The notes below the pieces were generated by a model. The model did not search any database. It was not told the DNA's origin and saw nothing but the letters and a program-made list of their open reading frames with translations. This document shows positions 33,081-42,198 of a stretch of 43,713 nucleotides of DNA, one piece after another (the first letter of the stretch is position 1; every line of letters starts with the position of its first letter). Origin of the DNA: Acidobacteria bacterium AH-259-G07 (GTDB lineage: Bacteria; Acidobacteriota; UBA6911; RPQK01; JADFOI01); contig JALLON010000002.1 of NCBI GenBank assembly GCA_027717925.1, forward strand, positions 1 to 43,713. The letters run 5' to 3'. The translations under genes were made by a program, and so were the position numbers.

Positions 33081-34148
33081 CTATATTAGAGGGCAAGTTG
33101 GCCAGGCTTGTTGGACGATACTTTCAGTGGTGATAGCACGAGGGAGGCCCTTACCAGCCGACGGCTGTGTGCGTGTTAAATTCAACATTTCATTGTATCC
33201 ATTCTCTCCCGGCATCAGCACAATGTACTCAAAAGTCCGGACTTGTAGTTCCTTAAACACAGCTATAGGCGGCGATTGTTCCGGATAGGCCTCTCCTCTT
33301 CTCGCGGCGATTTCAATTCTTAGATTCTTGTTGGTCTGGCTGAAAACACAAGGGCGAGGTTGCTCGGGGTTTAGGGAACCATCGGGCATTCTTTCGTGAA
33401 GAAAAACACGCTGTGGAGAATTGGGTTGAATACGAAAGAATCGATCGATCACTACCCTATTCAAATGGAGTTGGTGCCAACGTCCTCCAGCTTTTGGAAT
33501 TTGTGCTACAAGGATGCGGGCTTCGATAGTTTCAATCGCAACTTCAGTTTCCTTTTGTTCTGGCTGTTGTTCGGGCTCAACTTCACGGATTCGACGGCGT
33601 CCCCTGATAACGTTCTGTGCTGCCCTTTCCAGAATCTCCTCGTCAATAGGTCGGATGTGGTCGGCAAACCGCTGGAGAAATAGGTCCCACGTGGTCAAAT
33701 CAACTGTTTCCTCTGGATTTGCCCTCACAACTAGGTAAGCTTCGAAGTTTTCTCTGAGTCCTCCAGGAGTAAGGTTCCCGGAACCGACGATTACGGTGTT
33801 CCGACCGTCGGGATAACGGAAGCGCAATATCTTGGGATGAAAGAGACGATTTGTGGGATTCCAAAAGATGCGAACTGTCAGTGTAGGAAACTGATCTTCC
33901 AATTCCTGAAGGCGTTCAAGAGCGTCGCGGTTTGTAATTGCGTCGATGCCTACAAGTAGCTCGCAGTTGCCTCGTTCGAGGAGACCTGTGAACTCTGGGT
34001 CAGAAAAGAGAGTTTCAATTCCGTCGCGGGATGCAAACGCAAATATTGCTCTAACTTCTTCGGCTTCACTAAGTGCCTGGACAATCGCCTCGAACAAGTA
34101 GAGTGTCGAGGGCTCCGTCGGATCTTGTATATGGAAATCGACTTGCAT
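33081..34148 (-). CDS. PLD-family (HxK...GSxN) nuclease, probable restriction endonuclease
   Basis: It has a single HKD-like motif, RLFHPKILRFRYPDGRNTVIVGSGNLTPGG, in the N-terminal half. The C-terminal half is an unassigned, beta-rich, putative DNA-recognition domain. It is the last gene of an operon with two DNA methyltransferases. Confidence 0.65.
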   Translation of the reverse strand: MQVDFHIQDPTEPSTLYLFEAIVQALSEAEEVRAIFAFASRDGIETLFSDPEFTGLLERGNCELLVGIDAITNRDALERLQELEDQFPTLTVRIFWNPTNRLFHPKILRFRYPDGRNTVIVGSGNLTPGGLRENFEAYLVVRANPEETVDLTTWDLFLQRFADHIRPIDEEILERAAQNVIRGRRRIREVEPEQQPEQKETEVAIETIEARILVAQIPKAGGRWHQLHLNRVVIDRFFRIQPNSPQRVFLHERMPDGSLNPEQPRPCVFSQTNKNLRIEIAARRGEAYPEQSPPIAVFKELQVRTFEYIVLMPGENGYNEMLNLTRTQPSAGKGLPRAITTESIVQQAWPTCPLI

Positions 34149-34165
34149 TTGGTCAGATCATGTCC

Positions 34166-35044
34166 TCATCCTGGATCGTGATTTTGATTTGAGGAAGCCA
34201 TTAATTCAGCATAAGGTACGACCTTCGGACCACTTTTTTTGTTTCGTGGAGGTTTGGCGAATATTAGGATGTATTCGTGTACGTTCTTGAAAAGGAAGTT
34301 GGGCGGATAAGGGTAGCTACCAAATATAGGGCGTTGCTTACCCCATGATCCCCACTTGCCTCCAGTACCATCCTTTGACCAAACTATCTCGTTGATCATT
34401 ACGAATCCGAGAGAGCGAAGGAGGATTGTGAAATCTGCGGCTAAAGGGAAGGTGAGCAACCCTTCATCAGTGTATTGATTGACATTAGCGGTGACGACGC
34501 ACAATTTTCTGCCGGGAACGAGGGTCCTAAAACACTCTTTGAAGACTGGTTCGATCTCTTCGAAGAACTGTAGGTAGCTACTAACGTTACCAAGGTTGCG
34601 GCGGTTATTGTCGTAACAAGCTTTGTTCCAATAGGGGGGACTGGTAACTATGAGGTGCACTGACTCGTCTTCAAGGAAATCCAGTGATCGGCTGTCACCC
34701 CTATGTACTGTTAATGGCTTCTTGAAACGTCCACCGTTTTTCAGTTTTGAACACTCGTTTTGAATAAATCGAGCGTATTTGTGATTCTGCTCTACGCATA
34801 TAGCTTTTCTGCCTAGTGGTATCGCTGCCTTAGCTGTGGTTCCTACTCCTGCGAATGGATCGAGAACCGTTTCACCGTAAAATGTGAACAGTTTGGTCAG
34901 ACGGGTTGGGATCTCAATGGGGAAGACTGCGGGGTGTTCAGGATGTGTTGTGTTAGCTATGTGCCATACCGTTTTTGTAAACTCGCGCCATTCTTCCTTG
35001 CTGAGCCTGCTTTTTTCCTTAATACTAGATGTGACTTTCCTCAT
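34166..35044 (-). CDS. DNA methyltransferase (N4-C/N6-A family, SPPY motif; motif I precedes motif IV)
   Basis: HPAVFPIEIPTRLTKLFTFYGETVLDPFAGVGTT (motifs X and I) is followed by HLIVTSPPYW (motif IV). ATGA overlap with the upstream gene at 35041-35044. Confidence 0.8.
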   Translation of the reverse strand: MRKVTSSIKEKSRLSKEEWREFTKTVWHIANTTHPEHPAVFPIEIPTRLTKLFTFYGETVLDPFAGVGTTAKAAIPLGRKAICVEQNHKYARFIQNECSKLKNGGRFKKPLTVHRGDSRSLDFLEDESVHLIVTSPPYWNKACYDNNRRNLGNVSSYLQFFEEIEPVFKECFRTLVPGRKLCVVTANVNQYTDEGLLTFPLAADFTILLRSLGFVMINEIVWSKDGTGGKWGSWGKQRPIFGSYPYPPNFLFKNVHEYILIFAKPPRNKKSGPKVVPYAELMASSNQNHDPG

Positions 35045-37323
35045 CTTCGTTCTCCCCCGGAAATATGATTGATTCTCGACATGTTCCTTCTACGCTCATC
35101 GGCGTCATCTACAACTACGACATCTATGAGAAAAGTGCGAAGGTGGTCCGCCAAGCTAGATGAAATGTTGGCGGACTGAAGTAGCACTTTATCAATACCA
35201 TCTCGCTCAACTTCACAGTTGTCTGGAGGATGGGCTATCATTTTTCTCCCGCCATTAAGGCTTTCGGTCCGGTTTTCCCTCACCTTTTCCCAAGTTCTTG
35301 CCCCGAGCCTCGAAAGCTGCACTAACTCTTTGCGTTGAAAAGAAGAACGTCCAAAGGGTATTTGTTCTACAAAGGTTCTGGGAACATGGAATCCATCGCA
35401 ACGTACACGCCATAGCCAATAAACCAAACGACTTGAGAGAACGGCAAAACAGACTCGGGCCATTTCCTCGGTATCGAATTCCAAACTGAGAAGTTTATTT
35501 TTACTTAGTGTCTCGCTGATTTTTGGCAAGGAACGAAAGACATTAAGGAAATTGTAAGCGGTACTAGCAATGAATACCTTTGGGGTCTCGGTTTCGCGGG
35601 TGGCTTCGAGTGGCGTACAACTCTTTGCGTGTTGCCACAACGTTCTCAAAGAGTCGGGACAACCGGACAGAACCTGATAGGCTTTGGCCTCGTTGTCTCC
35701 CGATAGCTTTGGAATTCCAGAGAGGATTGAGTTACTACTTAACTTGGTAAATCTTATGGAAGAGAAGAGTTGTTTTCTGGTCCGACTAGTCCACTTGTAG
35801 AGGGAGGTGGTGTATGGCTGGAAATCGGAGGACGTTTGATAGGTTTCTACTCTAAAAAGAATAGCATTTCGGGTTTTGACTTCTTCTCCAAACAACGCGT
35901 GGGGCTCACGGTCAAAAAAGGCAAAGCGCCAGTCGCTACCGTGCTTCGTCATAGCTTTTCGGCAAGCCTTGTAGGCTCGGCCTTGATGATAGCTGATCGA
36001 CAATGGTACTACCATTGCTGATGAGTTTTCCCCTCCAGCTGCCAGTCTCCACATCATCTCAATAAATAGTAGAAACGCGTTTTCATTACCGTTTGTCTTA
36101 ACGCCCGTCAAAGTCTCATATTCGCGAGAAAGGAAAGGAAGATCGTTACGGTTTCCAAGAGAAGTGTATGGAGGGTTACCGATCACCAGATCGAATCCTT
36201 TAGGGACCTCTGGGAAAAGCGCTTGTAGAGGGATGCGATGTGCACCCCCATTTAACCAACTGACTAAGGTTGGAGAAGAGTTCTTTGAGGCCGTGCTCCT
36301 AACCAGTAAAGGCAGAGACGTCCGTCGCGGATCTAAGAGTTGTCTTCTAATTCTTTGTCGACCGATATGGTCTATCGACCCAGAATGAGCATGGGAGTTG
36401 TCAATGAATACGTTAAGAGAATCTACTGTACAGAGGTTGAGGCTGAGGGCATGCCAGGCGGCCCAGGGAGTAATCCCCGTAGAGAGTGCGTCAGACAAAC
36501 ACTCGTGCAAGAGAACAAAAGTACAGGATTCAACTACCAGTGGATCTACGTCCAGTCCGTAGAGACATTCTACGGAATAAGTGAAGGGTTTGAAGCCGCC
36601 CTCGGTAGTAAGCGCGTTCGCTACCCTCATCATCGCAAGCAAAAAGACGCCGGTGCCACAGCATGGATCCAGGCATCGGAGGTTCGTGTGAGCGGGAGCT
36701 TTGCGTCTGAGAAGGTATGAAACCATGTATTCCGCAACGTCGGCGGGTGTGTAGAAAACGCCTTTTCGCTTCTTAATTTCTCGTGCCTGGCGTGTCGTTG
36801 GATCACGGAGCACAGTAAGACGCGTGCCGGGGCCATGAGGCTCCAAAATGTAAGGTAACAAATCAAAGAAATTGTGATCTAAGTGAGTCTGCGACAGTAG
36901 TTCCAGGGCCTGCCTTTCAACTTCAACGGGGATCTTAGAGGCGAGAGATGGTAGGTGGCTTCTCTCACGATCGAGGAACCAGTTTTCTGAATCAAGGAAA
37001 CCGGCATTTTGATTAATCACTCCGATTTTTCTTGCAAGTATCCACGTGTTTACAAGAGTCCAGGCGGCACGACGTGCTAAATGTTGTTCTCGTAGAGTGT
37101 ATCCCTCATGAGGGAGCCACCTAGAAAAGAAGAGTTGTCTAAACTCCGATTCGAACGCCAGGTTTGTGAGCACCTCTTCTAATTTCCGAACGGCCCGCCG
37201 AACAGATTTGGCTCTCTCCTCGGTGAGGGAGAACAGGCTACGCCCTGGACCCGGAACTGATGGTCTAATCGGGGCCTGTAAAGCATTTGTTGGGTTGACT
37301 TGAATATTCTCCAGAGCTTTCAT
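35041..37323 (-). CDS. Eco57I-like gamma-class N6-adenine DNA methyltransferase (about 760 aa)
   Basis: The frame is open to TTG 37440. ATG 37323 has GAGGTGG upstream. Motifs: GVFYTPADVAEYMV, CLDPCCGTGVFLL (motif I), DLVIGNPPYTS (motif IV). The long N- and C-terminal regions are unassigned. Confidence 0.75.
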   Translation of the reverse strand: MKALENIQVNPTNALQAPIRPSVPGPGRSLFSLTEERAKSVRRAVRKLEEVLTNLAFESEFRQLFFSRWLPHEGYTLREQHLARRAAWTLVNTWILARKIGVINQNAGFLDSENWFLDRERSHLPSLASKIPVEVERQALELLSQTHLDHNFFDLLPYILEPHGPGTRLTVLRDPTTRQAREIKKRKGVFYTPADVAEYMVSYLLRRKAPAHTNLRCLDPCCGTGVFLLAMMRVANALTTEGGFKPFTYSVECLYGLDVDPLVVESCTFVLLHECLSDALSTGITPWAAWHALSLNLCTVDSLNVFIDNSHAHSGSIDHIGRQRIRRQLLDPRRTSLPLLVRSTASKNSSPTLVSWLNGGAHRIPLQALFPEVPKGFDLVIGNPPYTSLGNRNDLPFLSREYETLTGVKTNGNENAFLLFIEMMWRLAAGGENSSAMVVPLSISYHQGRAYKACRKAMTKHGSDWRFAFFDREPHALFGEEVKTRNAILFRVETYQTSSDFQPYTTSLYKWTSRTRKQLFSSIRFTKLSSNSILSGIPKLSGDNEAKAYQVLSGCPDSLRTLWQHAKSCTPLEATRETETPKVFIASTAYNFLNVFRSLPKISETLSKNKLLSLEFDTEEMARVCFAVLSSRLVYWLWRVRCDGFHVPRTFVEQIPFGRSSFQRKELVQLSRLGARTWEKVRENRTESLNGGRKMIAHPPDNCEVERDGIDKVLLQSANISSSLADHLRTFLIDVVVVDDADERRRNMSRINHISGGERR

Positions 37324-37505
37324 CCACCACCTCAACGGGCTTTCTACTACATGGGGGAACTTGACCGAAGTCACTCTATTTATAACAGGTAGGAGCGACA
37401 CGGATACAATTTTTCCACAAGACACTGACAGGATTTTCAAGTACTTAAATCTTTCTTTTTCTATCAGTTAACTGGACAGATAGGTTTATTGTTCCCGCAC
37501 AGTCT

Positions 37506-37826
37506 TTGGGAAGATGTATTTCAAGCGGAAGGACCGTTACTGAAAAAGAACGACTTCGCCGAGAATTCCTCAATTTTTTGGCGGAACACCCGGAGGCATA
37601 CCGTCCCTTTTACGATCAGAACCGATGGTGCGCGCTAGCCCGCCCAGGCGATCCGATGTTTGATTCCACAGGAGGAATCAGCCCGTCAGCGTTCCAGACA
37701 AGAGAGGAAGCCGCAGACTGGGTACAGAAATATCACAGGTTCTTTGGAACACCTCTGGTCGACTGGATAATCGCAACCGAGGCCGGCCTGCGAAGGAAGC
37801 TGGAAAATTTGGAAGTTATCAATTAA
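37506..37826 (+). CDS. hypothetical protein (106 aa, TTG start)
   Basis: ORF only: non-ATG start and no motif. Confidence 0.3.
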   Translation: MGRCISSGRTVTEKERLRREFLNFLAEHPEAYRPFYDQNRWCALARPGDPMFDSTGGISPSAFQTREEAADWVQKYHRFFGTPLVDWIIATEAGLRRKLENLEVIN

Positions 37827-38028
37827 CCTGCTCAGATCACTTGTTCAGGTTAAGTGTCATGAGAATCCACCTTGGACTCCCCATACACATACTAGATTCA
37901 CTACTACACTACAAACTTTTTATATCTTGAGTGTCTCGCGTGAGGGTGGGTGGGGGCTAGGTCTGGGGGCCATTCTTCCCATCTGTTGTGCTCGATAATT
38001 AAGAGAGCAAATCCGACCGTGCCACAAA

Positions 38029-38931
38029 TTACACCACTAAAAGCTTGTGGAGTTCTACTAATTCAATTTCGCCGCTCCTTGGTGGAGCTCCTTCCGCGTA
38101 CACTGTCCAGTACAGCTTCTTGTCCTGGAGCGCTTCCCTGCTAAGTTCGCGAAACTTGTAAGCCACATGAAGTCGATCGTGATAGTCGGCAAGCCTTACC
38201 TCATCATCCGCGAACATTGGTGGCAGATTAAGCGCCGAGCTTCTGATCATGATTTCCTGATAATCTTCCATCCCTCTAACGGGGAAACTGTGCGAGTACC
38301 CGTGTCCTTTCATTTCAAGAATTTTCAACGGGAGAGCAATTTTCAACCCATACTCTTTCACTGTAACGGAACCTAAATTCAGAATCTCAATTGTTAAGAC
38401 CGCTGTCTTATCAACCAAGCGCGAAGAGAAGTGCGGTTCCAACACCGGCCGCTTAACTCGGTTCATCACGTCTCGGATTTCATAGTCCTCCATTGGTTCG
38501 GACTTGAAGTTATACCTCTTGTAGTACTTCTTGTCATGAGCTTGATGAGCCGTGCTGCTCTGAGGCACATAAACCAGATAAATATAGTTCCCATTTGATA
38601 GCTTTATATCGTTAATGATCACCCCACCGATCTTGGGCTGGATTCTCGACGTGATTACGTTCTCAAGCCACTCCTTCGAAATCTCATTAGGATCATATCC
38701 ATGGTCAATCCTTTCAGGTTCGTGGTTGTTCTCGATCACCCCATAAACGATCGCACCTCCGGCTGAATTAGCGAACGAACTCACATCCTTACTGACCTCG
38801 TTTTTCTTACCATCCGTCTTCCCTAGCGAATCACACTCTTTGTACTCAAGTGTGAGGCTTTCTGTTGCTGGTTGGTCTACAAGCTCCTGAATCTCTTCCT
38901 CAGTGGTCCGTTCCCACATTTCCTTACTCAT
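38029..38931 (-). CDS. Schlafen/AlbA_2-domain protein
   Basis: ESLTLEYKEC...EVSKDVSSFANSAGGAIVYGV...WLENVITSRIQPKI...YIYLVYVPQSS...YYKRYNFKSEPMEDYEIRDVM follows the AlbA_2 (divergent AAA/Schlafen) pattern. The roughly 140-aa C-terminal domain is unassigned. Confidence 0.65.
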   Translation of the reverse strand: MSKEMWERTTEEEIQELVDQPATESLTLEYKECDSLGKTDGKKNEVSKDVSSFANSAGGAIVYGVIENNHEPERIDHGYDPNEISKEWLENVITSRIQPKIGGVIINDIKLSNGNYIYLVYVPQSSTAHQAHDKKYYKRYNFKSEPMEDYEIRDVMNRVKRPVLEPHFSSRLVDKTAVLTIEILNLGSVTVKEYGLKIALPLKILEMKGHGYSHSFPVRGMEDYQEIMIRSSALNLPPMFADDEVRLADYHDRLHVAYKFRELSREALQDKKLYWTVYAEGAPPRSGEIELVELHKLLVV

Positions 38932-39457
38932 ATCTTTCCCATTTTATCAGGACCACGAACAGGGACCATCCACCATACTGGCACTCACGCCAACCTGGGC
39001 GTCAACCCGCTTAGCAGCGGGTGCTACGCTGGCTTTTCCCTTCGTCTGTCGCAGGATCAATAAGTACTAGTTTCTACCTTTTGCCCTGCTGGATGATCAT
39101 ATACTCAAATAGCGGAGTATCCGCCGGAGTATCCAAAGAAATTTACCAAAAAGCCAGCCTTCTTACACAACTAAAGAACTATCCGAAACCTCTCCAACTC
39201 ATCCCGTAATATCCCGCAACTGTAGCCAAAATTAGCAAAACTTAGATAAACTCAAATAAAGAACACACCCTGCACAACTTGCTGATTTTAAAAGCTTTGA
39301 TGAGCTCAAATAAACTCATATAAACTGATGTAAAAACGCTGAGCATGGTCTACGAAACCATAACCGGGCATCTTGACAAAAGCGCCAAAACAACCCTTTC
39401 TTGTTTATCTATTAGGGATTACGCTATTTTAGACTGTGACTGAAGGCGACAGGAAAT

Positions 39458-39498
39458 TACAATATTTAACTGCAGAGTAACTACAATTTTAACTACAG
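39458..39498 (+). promoter_or_regulatory. direct repeat tacaat(a)tttaact(g/a)cag x2, a candidate operator upstream of the 39600 operon
   Basis: Copies are at 39458-39475 and 39482-39498, about 100 nt upstream of ATG 39600, in an AT-rich spacer. The spacer also carries three ataaact motifs (39245-39335) and a TTGACA at about 39374. Confidence 0.35.
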
Positions 39499-39599: not shown

Positions 39600-40232
39600 A
39601 TGTTTTACCCAACCGTCGAGGAATTCAAAGAGGTCCTACTTGCTCGCCCGCTCGACTCAGTGGTCAACGATTACATTTTTACCGGCACGCCATTCGTCTT
39701 CCGTGGCCGACCGGAGACCATGAATGAATTACGAGAACACTTATTGAAGTCGTTGAGCGTTTCGGAACAAGACGTCGTTGTTGTTGGCAGCGCGAAGATT
39801 GGTTTTAGTCTGAATCCTCATAACTTTTCCCGCCAATTCACCGATCAATCAGACATAGACATCGTCGTAGTTAATGAGACTCTTTTCGATAAAATCTGGA
39901 AGGTATTATTAAGCTGGAGCTATCCTCGAAGATACCGCTTGGTCGGCAGCGAAAACGAATGGGAGGAACAAAGGAAAGACGATCTCTATTGGGGCTGGTT
40001 CAGACCAGACAAAATTCGATATGAAGGGTTGTCTCTGCCGAGACTTCTCGAACCACTGAGAGACCTTTCGACGGATTGGTTTAATGCTTTTCAAAGCCTT
40101 TCCATTTATTCTGAGTTAGCTGCTCGGGATGTATCCGGCCGTCTCTATCGCACGTGGCCTCACGCCCTCATGTATTATGAGAACAGTCTCGGAAAGATAA
40201 AGAAAATCGTTCAGGAAGAACATAGGATTTGA
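39600..40232 (+). CDS. pol-beta-fold nucleotidyltransferase-like protein (210 aa)
   Basis: VVVVGSAKIGFSLNP...(13 aa)...QSDIDIVVV fits the GS-x(n)-[DE]-x-[DE] minimal NTase signature. The C-terminal helical half is unassigned. Confidence 0.5.
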   Translation: MFYPTVEEFKEVLLARPLDSVVNDYIFTGTPFVFRGRPETMNELREHLLKSLSVSEQDVVVVGSAKIGFSLNPHNFSRQFTDQSDIDIVVVNETLFDKIWKVLLSWSYPRRYRLVGSENEWEEQRKDDLYWGWFRPDKIRYEGLSLPRLLEPLRDLSTDWFNAFQSLSIYSELAARDVSGRLYRTWPHALMYYENSLGKIKKIVQEEHRI

Positions 40233-40238
40233 AAGCAA

Positions 40239-41321
40239 ATGGAGTTTGAGTCTTCAACACAAATCATAGGTTGGTTAAGAGATAGGTATATTGAAGGTAC
40301 TCTTGAGATTAGACCGCCGTATCAACGAAAGCCCGTTTGGGCGGCTCGGCAAAAGTGTTACCTGATAGAGTCAGTTCTTATGGGCTTGCCTGTTCCTGAG
40401 ATTTATATACAACAGAGCGTATCGGCAGGGGGTAGAACTACATACGCCATTGTGGATGGGCAGCAGCGCGTTCGTACGATTTTGCAGTTTATTGGTGCTG
40501 AAACCGACCCCGAAGAACAGGAGTACAACAAATTTTCTTTGGATAAGCTTCCGGCTCAATCTGAGTGGCGAAACCTAACATTTTCTGACCTTTCGGAGGA
40601 GAAACAAATCAAGTTTATTGGCTATAGGTTTACGGTTAGGTTTTTAGATACAGATAGCGAACCTGAAGTACGGAGTATGTTTACGCGTCTCAACAAATAC
40701 CTGACTCCGTTAAATGCCCAAGAGCTACGAAACGCTACCTATACCGGCCCACTCATTCGGCTCGTCACTAAGTTAGCAGATGATGAGTACTGGGCAGAAA
40801 ACAAAATAGTGACAGCTGCTTCAATTCGAAGGATGGGAGATGTGGAGTTTGCAAGCAATCTTCTCATTGGTGTGTTGCATGGCCCGCAAGGTGGGAGTCC
40901 CAAAATAGTCGATTCATACTATGAGCAATATGAAGATTACGAAGACGAATTTCCAGGTCAGCCGGCTGCAACAAAGCTTTTCAACGAGACACTAGACATA
41001 GTGAAAACGCTCTTCGCGGATATAAGAAATACTCGCTGGGGTAACAAGACGGATTTTTATACTCTTTTTGTCGGATTGGCCTCATTGTTGAGGACCAGCG
41101 ACCTGACAGGCAGAAAAGTTAGGGAAGTCAGGGGGGTACTTCAGGACTTCGCCAATCAGGTGGATCTGCGTCTCTCTAACGAGAGGGCCAAAGTAAGTCG
41201 CTCAGCGATTGACTACGTAAGGGCTGTAGAGAAAGGTGCCAATGATAAAAGGCGGCGGGCAGATCGTCATAACGTACTGGTAGAGTTGATTCAGGCCTAC
41301 TTTAGGGCCAGGAAACATTAG
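40239..41321 (+). CDS. DUF262 (ParB/GmrSD N-terminal-like) protein without a DUF1524/HNH domain
   Basis: IRPPYQRKPVWAARQKCYLIESVLMGLPVPEIYI...YAIVDGQQRVRTILQFI is the DUF262 signature, including DGQQR. It starts 6 nt after the previous gene. Confidence 0.8.
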   Translation: MEFESSTQIIGWLRDRYIEGTLEIRPPYQRKPVWAARQKCYLIESVLMGLPVPEIYIQQSVSAGGRTTYAIVDGQQRVRTILQFIGAETDPEEQEYNKFSLDKLPAQSEWRNLTFSDLSEEKQIKFIGYRFTVRFLDTDSEPEVRSMFTRLNKYLTPLNAQELRNATYTGPLIRLVTKLADDEYWAENKIVTAASIRRMGDVEFASNLLIGVLHGPQGGSPKIVDSYYEQYEDYEDEFPGQPAATKLFNETLDIVKTLFADIRNTRWGNKTDFYTLFVGLASLLRTSDLTGRKVREVRGVLQDFANQVDLRLSNERAKVSRSAIDYVRAVEKGANDKRRRADRHNVLVELIQAYFRARKH

Positions 41322-41325
41322 GAGA

Positions 41326-42198
41326 ATGGGTAGACAACTTTACGAGATCCTGTGTGCAGATGCTTTTCGGTGGCTGGAAAGGCGCAGAGCGAAGTCAATT
41401 CATGCAGTCGTTACGGACCCTCCGTACAGCGTTCTTGAGTACACGCCGGAACAGCTCAATAAACAGCGTAATGGACGCGGGGGAATTTGGCGTCTTCCGC
41501 ATAATTATGACGGCTCAAAACGCAAACCGGTGCCACGTTTCACAGTGCTGCGTTCGAAGGATCTAGAAAGGCTGCAGGATTTCCACGCTCGCCTCTCACC
41601 TCAGCTCTTTAGAGTCTTGGTGCCGGGTGGTCATGTCATCATCGCCTCACAACATCTACTATGTCATTTCGTTGTCTCAGCATTTACTGACGCTGGGTTT
41701 GAAATCCGTGGCCAAATTGCCCGTATCGTCAAAACCCTTAGAGGGGGTGATAGGCCTAAGGGCGCTCATGAGGAGTTTCGAGATCTCTCGGTTAGCCCAA
41801 GATCTTGTTGGGAGCCCTGGCTAATATTCCGGAAACCTTGCGAAGGCCGAGTAAAGGAAAATTTGGAAAAGTGGCATACTGGAGCGCTTCGGCGCCCGCA
41901 ATCGGATGTGCCTTTCAAAGACCTAATTGAATCTGCTCCCGCTAGGGGTACTGAAAAAAGGCTCGCACCACACCCCTCCCTCAAACCTCAGGCTTTCGTG
42001 AGACAGATCGTTCGGGCGTCACTTCCTCTCGGCAAGGGCGTCATTTTGGACCCATTTATGGGTTCAGGCTCGACGATAGCAGCCGCACACCATCTGGGTT
42101 TAAGGAGTATAGGCATAGAGATGGATGAGGAGTTCTTCGAGCTGGCGCAGACGTTTATACCAGAGTTGTCTAAACTACAGGTAAACGGGACTCGATAG
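41326..42198 (+). CDS. beta-class DNA methyltransferase (DPPY; N6-A or N4-C)
   Basis: IHAVVTDPPYSV (motif IV) is N-terminal. HPSLKPQAFVRQIVRASLPLGKGVILDPFMGSGSTIAAA (motifs X and I) is C-terminal. It starts 4 nt after the DUF262 gene. Confidence 0.85.
   Translation: MGRQLYEILCADAFRWLERRRAKSIHAVVTDPPYSVLEYTPEQLNKQRNGRGGIWRLPHNYDGSKRKPVPRFTVLRSKDLERLQDFHARLSPQLFRVLVPGGHVIIASQHLLCHFVVSAFTDAGFEIRGQIARIVKTLRGGDRPKGAHEEFRDLSVSPRSCWEPWLIFRKPCEGRVKENLEKWHTGALRRPQSDVPFKDLIESAPARGTEKRLAPHPSLKPQAFVRQIVRASLPLGKGVILDPFMGSGSTIAAAHHLGLRSIGIEMDEEFFELAQTFIPELSKLQVNGTR

Follow-up and report, generated by a model that had tools for sequence, protein, structure and literature searches.

What function is served by a short run of three tightly packed genes in which a DNA methyltransferase (MTase) is preceded by a stand-alone DUF262 protein and by a small protein of no annotated family? 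The genes lie near one end of a 43,713-nt stretch of DNA from Acidobacteria bacterium AH-259-G07 (assembly GCA_027717925.1, contig JALLON010000002.1, positions 1 to 43,713 of the forward strand), which is referred to here as the window. The features relevant to this question are as follows.

39227 to 39334, no strand assigned: a reiterated AAACTCAAATAAA-like motif, five imperfect copies at 10-nt spacing, 270-370 nt upstream of gene A.
39600 to 40232, + strand: gene A, a 210-aa nucleotidyltransferase (NTase)-like protein of an unannotated family, with GS at residues 63-64 (nt 39786-39791) and SDID at residues 84-87 (nt 39849-39860).
40239 to 41321, + strand: gene B, a 360-aa NsnA-like protein with an N-terminal ParB-DUF262 NTPase-type domain and an all-helical C-terminal domain.
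41326 to 42198, + strand: gene C, a 290-aa beta-class (DPPY ... FxGxG) N6-adenine/N4-cytosine DNA methyltransferase.

A sequence-only reading of this region had described a three-gene operon with 6-nt and 4-nt gaps, and inspection of the open reading frames confirms that observation, as all three genes are intact, co-directional and separated by exactly these distances. Two details of that reading are only partly right. The spacer upstream of the genes, which had been called AT-rich, is only mildly so (GC 0.425, against 0.44-0.52 nearby), and the proposed 18-bp direct repeat is instead an imperfect 24-nt repeat (20/24 identities; 39237-39260 versus 39291-39314) that resides within the 10-nt-periodic motif series listed above, whose 24-nt units share 75-83% identity. 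This series might represent an operator or a remnant of an element end, although its function is unknown. A search for promoter-like and terminator-like sequences returned matches that are not above chance, among them a weak promoter-like site at 39436-39463.

The protein encoded by gene A belongs to a large family that lacks a Pfam model. None of at least 229 close homologues carries a Pfam domain, and the family comprises 1,444 clusters at 50% identity (E<=1e-3). The residues G63, S64, G68, S70, S84, D85 and D87, which form the signature GSxxxGxS...SDxD, are invariant among 166 sequences drawn from three branches of the superfamily. The signature, VVGS(63-64)...SDID(84-87)IVVV, corresponds to the hG[GS]...[DE]h[DE]h pattern of pol-beta superfamily nucleotidyltransferases, and the order of elements in a confident AlphaFold2 model (pLDDT 90.9), namely helix 38-52, strand 59-62, helix 64-67, strand 86-91 and helix 93-107, fits that fold. 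The 20-residue spacing between GS and DxD, however, is longer than the usual 9-13. Whether the protein adopts an NTase fold had been named in advance as a point on which the interpretation would stand or fall, and our searches leave it undecided: the fold is likely but unproven. The Pfam NTP_transf_2 model matches gene A only below threshold (E 0.025; 15.4 bits against a cut-off of 21) and is seen in 3 of 38 family members. A Foldseek search against PDB returned a best hit of only E 0.6, and although poly(A) polymerase, CutA and TUT4 make up 9 of the top 15 hits, their TM scores do not exceed 0.23. Searching BFVD likewise revealed no significant match, and profile searches of PDB sequences found no NTase. 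The identity of a third catalytic carboxylate is similarly unsettled by the alignments, as the candidate D97 is 93% conserved in the core clade but only 40% in the sister branch and 17% in the viral branch, whereas an acidic residue following strand 3 (position 187) that is present in most members is proline in the window's protein. An examination of fusion proteins joining A to a known domain provided nothing informative.

The product of gene B is a full-length NsnA-like protein. Pfam identifies GmrSD_N/DUF262 at residues 24-168 (8.8e-25), and the three motifs of DUF262 are intact (Q29-R30...W34, D73-G-Q-Q-R77 and F148...N152). The PADLOC NsnA model aligns with residues 10-354 of B and positions 53-382 of 385 of the model (8.9e-44), and weaker matches are observed to PD-T4-2_A (1.8e-20) and, only through the DUF262 part, to REase_II PDLC03418 (2.6e-13). 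No DUF1524 or other nuclease domain is recognisable. The C-terminal domain is modelled by AlphaFold2 as ten helices (pLDDT 90.7) and has no significant match in PDB. A conserved patch in this domain, R339-R340-x-x-R343-H344, exhibits an Rx4H pattern that suggested a HEPN RNase, and hence a HEPN-MNT-like pair. We rejected this idea as unsupported, because the patch is found only in the close clade, the histidine is replaced in viral and plasmid pairs, no HEPN hit is obtained with Pfam, and the structural model matches neither a HEPN nor any other solved fold significantly.

Gene C encodes an MTase with D31-P-P-Y34 near its N-terminus and DPFMGSGST near its C-terminus, the motif order of the beta class. 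It matches Pfam N6_N4_Mtase (2.8e-22) and the PADLOC MTase_II model PDLC03215 (3e-102), and its catalytic motifs are invariant in 21 orthologues, although enzymatic activity was not assayed.

We next asked whether the arrangement recurs, since a lack of conservation elsewhere had been put forward beforehand as grounds for abandoning the interpretation. A and B are adjacent in 31 of 31 species-level genome loci, representing at least 8 phyla, and in all metagenome loci with enough flanking sequence, an arrangement that is far beyond chance. Distance matrices of A and B correlate at r = 0.72, whereas C correlates only weakly with either (r = 0.31-0.35). An orthologue of C (E < 1e-90) lies within 2.5 kb in 23 of the 31 genome loci and follows B directly in 11 of these, and B and C are translationally coupled in many loci. 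Six genome loci with at least 5 kb of flank carry A-B with no MTase nearby; these were inspected at the locus only, and a distant MTase elsewhere in the genomes was not sought. Ten genome loci (eight distinct after near-duplicates are set aside) carry A-B together with an intact pair comprising C and a small PD-ExK restriction enzyme, designated D, and in these cases A-B is an addition to the REase rather than a replacement for it. Proteins resembling A in a sister branch have a quite different partner. In an Aliarcobacter plasmid a DUF4365 nuclease was initially considered for this role, but this candidate was rejected because in three further genomes the conserved partner is an upstream, overlapping Transgly gene.

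The relationship between C and D provides the main new result, and it was overlooked by the sequence-only reading. In a metagenome scan anchored on C, about 48 of the 80 loci kept carry C plus D (motif HPDL...EGxEIK, with D of ~200-220 aa), and 16 are A-B-C. At least 14 C-D loci with more than 5 kb of flank have no A-B. At one locus (L003) the same MTase family pairs instead with a REBASE-type REase (PDLC03399; 1.9e-144). The MTase tree splits with support 99 into a 28-member A-B-C clade, which contains the window's MTase, and a 75-member clade that is mostly C-D. One member of the A-B-C clade (locus L058) retains a 65-aa stump of D (E 3e-16), whereas a profile of D finds nothing in the window, in which we detected no fourth conserved gene. 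These observations indicate that the MTase comes from an ordinary type II restriction-modification (R-M) family, and that A-B occupies the slot of its PD-ExK endonuclease.

The genomic surroundings are consistent with a role in defence. Immediately upstream, the window carries an Eco57I-like MTase, an N6_N4 MTase, a PLD nuclease and a Schlafen/AlbA_2 gene, on an element with relaxase-like, primase and T4CP genes. Divergent A-B pairs lacking an MTase lie between gpA and the portal gene of P2-like prophages, a described defence hotspot (PMC9122126), as well as in a lambdoid E. coli prophage and on a 6.2-kb plasmid. No paper in the library searched describes the A family or this triad, and a search for sequencing runs holding the sequence found only DNA runs from sediment, with no expression or methylation data.

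Taken together, these findings partly support the interpretation offered with the original observation. The triad is conserved, does not match a canonical type I-IV R-M layout, and contains a DUF262 protein without an HNH/DUF1524 domain. Assignment of the genes to an established system had also been specified as a refuting outcome, and comparison with PADLOC models does not place them in a complete one: B matches NsnA of Menshen and C matches a type II MTase, but A matches nothing. Two suggestions made in that reading, a nucleotide-signalling role and a DndB-like regulator, are not supported. For the former, the window's A has no hit to SMODS/CD-NTase cyclase models at E <= 0.1 in PADLOC, only one distant A-like protein gives such a match (E 0.0054), and no effector with a nucleotide-sensing domain is present. 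For the latter, the DGQHR model (TIGR03187) scores E 0.044 and 13.5 bits against a cut-off of 58.85 bits, the motif in B is DGQQR, and no dnd or ssp genes are nearby.

We favor the hypothesis, to which we assign a probability of roughly 0.45, that the triad is an R-M-like defence cassette, carried as cargo of a mobile element, in which the usual endonuclease has been replaced by an obligate two-protein unit. The analysis itself establishes that A and B are an inseparable, co-evolving pair, that C belongs to an MTase family whose usual partner is D, that in the window's clade A-B sits directly upstream of C, often with overlapping B-stop and C-start, with D gone and a stump kept in one relative, and that divergent A-B pairs sit alone in prophage defence hotspots. 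The mechanism, by contrast, is inferred. In this view, C would methylate host DNA and thereby mark it as self, while B, a ParB/DUF262 NTP-switch protein with a helical DNA-binding-type domain like that of the Menshen sensor NsnA (NsnA-type domains are argued to sense DNA; PMC12065111), would bind DNA and read whether it carries the mark. On meeting unmarked or foreign DNA, B would license A, a small enzyme with a pol-beta-type GS...DxD metal/nucleotide site, which would carry out the harmful step by nucleotidyl transfer onto nucleic acid or protein, or by a cryptic phosphodiesterase activity, resulting in a block to the invader or arrest of the infected cell. Weighing against this model, no nuclease or other known effector domain is recognisable in A or B, the NTase fold of A has no significant structural or profile support, ten genome loci carry A-B in addition to an intact C-D pair, C correlates only weakly with A and B, and the occurrence of A-B without a nearby MTase in six genome loci and in all prophage and plasmid copies indicates that the pair is not obligately dependent on C in cis. 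It may be triggered by infection rather than by lack of methylation.

The latter possibility leads to the strongest alternative, which we regard as possible but unlikely, in which A-B is an autonomous, infection-triggered abortive-infection or toxin-antitoxin-like pair, comparable to AbiE (a DNA-binding partner plus an NTase toxin) or to MNT-type nucleotidyltransferase antitoxins, and the MTase is a separate defence layer that merely travels with it. In a related version, C is the component that A-B guards, such that A-B fires when phage anti-restriction proteins disable the R-M system, as PrrC does for EcoprrI. The solitary A-B pairs, the loci that retain an intact C-D system beside A-B and the weak covariation of C with A-B all favor this view, the Transgly partner of the sister branch fits a generic regulator or effector role for A, and R-M-linked secondary RNase modules are a known theme (PMC3710099). 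However, in the window's lineage the neighbour is always the same orthologous MTase family and not any R-M system, and an entire 28-member clade has lost the REase yet kept the MTase, with invariant catalytic motifs, fused into the A-B operon, which is hard to explain if C has no functional tie to A-B. The HEPN-like patch of B offers this alternative no help, as it is not conserved in divergent pairs and the domain has no HEPN fold match.

Two further explanations appear considerably less probable. A-B might be a split, modification-dependent (type IV-like) restriction system in the manner of GmrS/GmrD, GrwAB or Dazbog, in which B would recognise foreign modified DNA, a cryptic nuclease activity would reside in A or in the ParB-fold domain, and the MTase would be unrelated or serve another purpose. 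DUF262 domains sense modified DNA in GmrSD, BrxU, SspE and probably Dazbog (PMC10952713; PMC12707154), the original GmrSD is a two-protein system, and ParB-fold domains have been annotated as nucleases (PMC3632139). Nevertheless, A has no His-Me/DUF1524 features and no beta-beta-alpha element in its model, a modification-dependent enzyme fused in an operon with an active MTase would attack its own host unless the specificities differ, and the replacement of a PD-ExK REase next to C points to the opposite polarity, that is, action on unmodified DNA. Least probable of all is that A-B is a DndB-like unit controlling the expression or activity of the MTase rather than a defence effector. DndB shares the ParB-like plus helical-domain architecture and represses dnd genes (PMC12065111; PMC3632139), and both the coupling of B to C in many loci and the motifs upstream of the operon speak for such a role. 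In addition to the poor DGQHR score, though, the pair is common where there is no modification gene to regulate, C-D systems function without A-B in most loci, and two enzyme-like proteins totalling 570 aa with invariant catalytic-type residues are unlike known R-M controllers.

A bolder reading, which is doubtful but compatible with the data, is that A-B is the executive arm of a nuclease-free class of restriction, in which a ParB-type NTP switch reads the methylation state set by a dedicated MTase and licenses a new family of minimal nucleotidyltransferases to disable the invader or the infected cell by nucleotidyl transfer rather than DNA cleavage. Under this reading the unit would have repeatedly displaced classical endonucleases beside methylases and would also work as a stand-alone cassette in prophage defence hotspots. 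If the favored hypothesis is correct, the triad would represent a widespread, unnamed anti-phage and anti-plasmid system, of which current defence-finding tools see only a stray NsnA-like gene and an orphan or type II methylase. It would also show that an MTase can exchange its endonuclease for a sensor-plus-enzyme pair, which bears on the question of what DUF262/ParB-fold sensors without nucleases actually do, a question also unresolved for Menshen, Dazbog and PD-T4-2. At 2.6 kb the system is compact enough for direct testing in laboratory E. coli.

How, then, does the triad compare with systems already described? NTase-based toxin-antitoxin and Abi pairs (HEPN-MNT type VII; AbiEi-AbiEii/MenT) likewise encode on mobile elements a small protein with a pol-beta-type GS...DxD signature just upstream of, and coupled to, a nucleic-acid-binding partner. 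No toxicity data exist for A-B, and A differs in its sub-threshold NTP_transf_2 score, its longer GS-to-DxD spacing and a long helical C-terminal half, while its partner is a DUF262 NTPase rather than a HEPN RNase or a wHTH antitoxin. The predicted HEPN(MAE_28990)-ParB-DNA methylase operons (Anantharaman et al. 2013, PMC3710099) share the three-part layout of small partner protein, ParB/DUF262 protein and DNA methylase, and PD-T4-2 combines a DUF262 protein, whose model B matches, with a HEPN protein. The partner in the window, however, has no Pfam or PADLOC HEPN hit and has an alpha/beta GS...DxD core, and PD-T4-2 has no methylase.

Menshen (NsnA-NsnB-NsnC) shares with B the ParB-DUF262 plus helical ParBDB architecture, for which a DNA-sensor role is proposed (PMC12065111), and some Menshen loci also sit beside solitary methylases. 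The NsnB ABC-type ATPase (AAA_15/DUF3696) is absent, as neither A nor C has an ATPase hit in Pfam, NCBIfam or PADLOC and none was found in related loci, and the position downstream of B is occupied by a translationally coupled MTase instead of the NsnC effector (inPIN plus nuclease/toxin domain), with the 210-aa NTase-like protein, absent from PADLOC, upstream. The GmrSD/BrxU/SspE family, including the split forms GmrS+GmrD and GrwAB, has the same N-terminal DUF262 domain with its QR, DGQQR and FxxxN motifs, and in those enzymes the domain acts as an NTP-dependent sensor of DNA modification. Cleavage of modified DNA was not assayed here, but neither A nor B has a DUF1524/His-Me nuclease domain, and the genetic link to an MTase and to the slot of a classical REase suggests action on unmodified rather than modified DNA. 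Finally, the classical type II R-M systems of the same MTase family, in which C is joined by D or by the REBASE-type REase, possess an orthologous beta-class DPPY methyltransferase and the same compact operon logic, and it is from this family that the A-B-C clade descends. In the window the PD-ExK endonuclease is missing, and its place is taken by two proteins with no recognisable nuclease fold.

The three open reading frames lie exactly where the sequence-only reading had placed them, all on the forward strand and separated by gaps of 6 nt and 4 nt, and its observation is therefore confirmed. The genes, together with a repeat series upstream of them, are as follows.

39600-40232 (+), gene A, encoding a protein of 210 aa
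40239-41321 (+), gene B, encoding a protein of 360 aa
41326-42198 (+), gene C, encoding a protein of 290 aa
39227-39334, a 10-nt-periodic, AAACTCAAATAAA-like repeat series in the upstream spacer

Pfam searches identify B as a GmrSD_N/DUF262 protein (8.8e-25, residues 24-168) without a DUF1524 domain, and C as an N6_N4_Mtase (2.8e-22) with DPPY at residues 31-34 and the FxGxG motif near the C-terminus, which is the beta-class motif order. Protein A yields only a sub-threshold match to NTP_transf_2 (E 0.025). Two side details of the sequence-only reading proved weaker than claimed. The spacer described as AT-rich has a GC fraction of 0.425, only slightly below that of its surroundings, and the 18-bp direct repeat is an imperfect 24-mer (20/24) that falls within the periodic series. 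Promoter-like and terminator-like sites in this region are not above chance.

The triad is the last cargo of a mobile element. Upstream lie, in order, genes for a replication-relaxation protein, a CHC2/Toprim primase and a T4CP-like ATPase, then an R-M operon, and then a Schlafen/AlbA_2 gene, an arrangement that constitutes a defence island on an integrative/mobilisable element. The portion immediately upstream of the triad contains the following.

33081-38931 (-), an Eco57I-like MTase (799 aa), an N6_N4 MTase (292 aa) and a PLD-family nuclease (355 aa) in one operon, followed by a stand-alone Schlafen/AlbA_2 protein (300 aa) with an unassigned C-terminal half
37506-37826 (+), an ORF of 106 aa between the R-M operon and the Schlafen gene, with no hit in Pfam, PADLOC or NCBIfam

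Protein A has at least 229 close homologues of about 210 aa, none of which carries a Pfam domain or an informative name, and a profile search of 1.84 billion representatives revealed 1,444 clusters at E <= 1e-3 and 133 at E <= 1e-30. The AF2 model of A is confident (pLDDT 90.9, pTM 0.85) and predicts a helix at residues 38-52, a strand at 59-62, G63-S64, a short helix, a loop, a strand at 86-91 carrying D85/D87, and a helix at 93-107. This is the order of the first half of a pol-beta nucleotidyltransferase core, and it is followed by a long helical part and a third strand (178-183). Across 166 sequences from three branches of the family (core, a sister branch and viral), residues F34, G63, S64, G68, S70, P73, F80, S84, D85, D87, G132, W160, R181 and Y183 are invariant or nearly so, whereas D97 is not conserved outside the core clade. 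At position 187 (nt 40158-40160), just after the third strand, most family members, including those of the viral and plasmid branches, have Asp or Glu, but the protein examined here has Pro; if that residue is the third metal ligand, this copy could be catalytically atypical.

Whether A adopts a nucleotidyltransferase fold had been singled out by the sequence-only reading as a point on which its proposal could fail. Foldseek returned no significant match in PDB or BFVD, the best PDB hit having an E-value of 0.6, and although nine of the top 15 hits are poly(A) polymerase, CutA or TUT4, their TM scores are at most 0.23. Profile searches of PDB sequences likewise found no NTase, and only 3 of 38 family members reach even E < 1 for NTP_transf_2. 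These comparisons leave the fold neither confirmed nor excluded, and we consider it likely (roughly 60%), but unproven, that A is an NTase-like enzyme.

In protein B, the three DUF262 motifs (Q29-R30..W34, D73-GQQ-R77 and F148..N152) are intact, and all are at least 90% conserved in 31 orthologues. The C-terminal half is confidently predicted to fold into ten helices (pLDDT 90.7), but the model has no significant match in PDB. A conserved R339-R340-x-x-R343-H344 patch within this half initially resembled a HEPN Rx4H motif. However, the His is replaced in divergent pairs, and we therefore read the patch as a basic, probably nucleic-acid-binding surface, which is consistent with the 'ParBDB' interpretation of such domains (PMC12065111).

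Lack of conservation of the triad elsewhere would have counted against the original proposal, and we surveyed its occurrence using the A profile. This search identified 31 species-level genome loci, all from MAGs, belonging to Planctomycetota, Acidobacteriota, Chloroflexota, Actinomycetota, Verrucomicrobiota, Pseudomonadota, Clostridia, Poribacteria and Bdellovibrionota. All 31 have B immediately downstream of A. In 23 loci an orthologue of C (E < 1e-90) is present within 2.5 kb, and in 11 of these C follows B directly, often overlapping its stop codon. Six loci have no MTase within at least 5 kb, and the remaining two are cut by contig ends. In two of the MTase-less loci, both from Acidobacteriota (L034:8685-9728 and L035:8747-9772), a radical-SAM gene (~345 aa) lies directly downstream of A-B in the position that the methyltransferase holds elsewhere, and it may encode an alternative modification enzyme. 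The distance matrices of A and B correlate strongly (r = 0.72), whereas C correlates more weakly with either (r = 0.31-0.35).

The principal finding is that A-B sits in the endonuclease slot beside C. In eight distinct genome loci (ten rows including near-duplicates) in which C is not fused behind B, C is accompanied by a fourth gene, D, whose product is about 200-230 aa in length, has no Pfam hit, and carries the motif HPDL...EGxEIK, a PD-ExK nuclease signature; it also matches a REase_II model weakly. In locus L003, the same MTase family is followed by a REBASE-type REase (1.9e-144). A scan of metagenome contigs anchored on C returned 579 relatives, and of the 80 that were kept, about 48 carry C plus D and 16 are A-B-C, while at least 14 C-D loci with more than 5 kb of flank have no A-B. 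The MTase tree splits with support 99 into a 28-member clade that includes C of the locus examined here, in which every member has A-B upstream and no intact D, and a 75-member clade of mostly C-D, with loci carrying both A-B and C-D scattered within it. One locus inside the A-B-C clade (L058:3380-3574, - strand) still retains, just downstream of C, a 65-aa N-terminal stump of D that matches positions 10-59 of the 219-position profile (E 3e-16) and represents a trace of REase loss. Thus, C comes from an ordinary type II R-M family, and in this lineage the endonuclease was lost and A-B became the operon partner of the MTase.

Divergent A-B pairs, in which A is 24-34% identical to the protein studied here and B carries a clear DUF262 domain, occur in three settings with no C or D nearby. 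In viral contigs representing P2-like prophages (L129:3086-10516 and L130:5974-10626), the pair lies between the replication gene gpA and the portal and terminase genes, the gpA match in L129 being to Phage_GPA (5.6e-131), and this position is the published P2-like defence hotspot (PMC9122126). The same divergent pair, annotated only as 'hypothetical' plus 'DUF262 domain-containing protein', is found in a lambdoid prophage between the replication genes and antiterminator Q (E. coli ETEC1738 chromosome, L131:5942-7587), and is present in only three of 5,426 complete E. coli genomes, all three from pigs. The third setting is a small Rop/ColE1-type plasmid of 6.2 kb, Cronobacter dublinensis pA84-3 (L038:329-1975), which carries an A-like + DUF262 pair as its main cargo and has no methyltransferase. 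In contrast, a sister branch of the A family (~219 aa; an Aliarcobacter plasmid, Klebsiella quasipneumoniae and Sulfurovum, also Serratia and Brenneria; loci L039:5271-6525, L040:5409-6660 and L043:5439-6654) always follows a ~200-aa monofunctional-transglycosylase-like (Transgly, PF00912) gene and overlaps it by 14 nt. In Klebsiella this unnamed 'Transgly + A-like' pair lies next to an integrase.

The analysis itself establishes that A-B is an obligate pair, that in one lineage it is tied to a single MTase family and there replaces the REase, and that elsewhere it sits in defence hotspots. What we infer from these observations is an R-M-like mechanism in which C would mark self DNA, B would sense DNA status through an NTP switch, and A would provide the enzymatic output, the role of B being suggested by analogy with the DUF262 domains of GmrSD, BrxU and SspE (PMC10952713) and with the proposed role of NsnA (PMC12065111). 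Alternatively, A-B might be an autonomous, infection-triggered Abi/TA-like pair whose link to the MTase is secondary or of a 'guard' type. This main rival, which we regard as possible but doubtful, is favoured by the MTase-less copies and by the loci where A-B coexists with an intact C-D pair, whereas the REase-less A-B-C clade, with its conserved and coupled MTase, favours the first reading. Type IV-like and DndB-like regulator roles are less likely. The sequence-only reading had suggested that the triad might be a modification-sensing or nucleotide-signalling defence variant, or a DndB-like regulator of a modification gene, and this interpretation is only partly supported.

The association of DUF262/COG1479 proteins with R-M and modification systems has been recognized in general terms since 2013, in literature that includes a predicted HEPN-ParB-methylase operon (PMC3632139; PMC3710099). 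By comparison, no paper in the literature searched describes the A family, the A-B pair or this triad, and PADLOC-DB 2.0 has no model for A. Assignment of these genes to an established system by a defence-finding tool was a further outcome that would have spoken against the original proposal, and the PADLOC models identify no complete known system here. A hits none of these models, and C matches MTase_II (3e-102). B hits PD-T4-2_A (1.8e-20) and a REBASE-derived REase_II model, although the latter only through its DUF262 part, and the NCBIfam DGQHR (DndB-type) model falls far below its cut-off. We classify the triad as DUF262-centred, modification-linked defence. It differs from Menshen: B corresponds to the Menshen sensor NsnA over nearly the whole model (8.9e-44), but the NsnB ABC-ATPase and the NsnC effector that Menshen requires (PMC12065111) are both absent.
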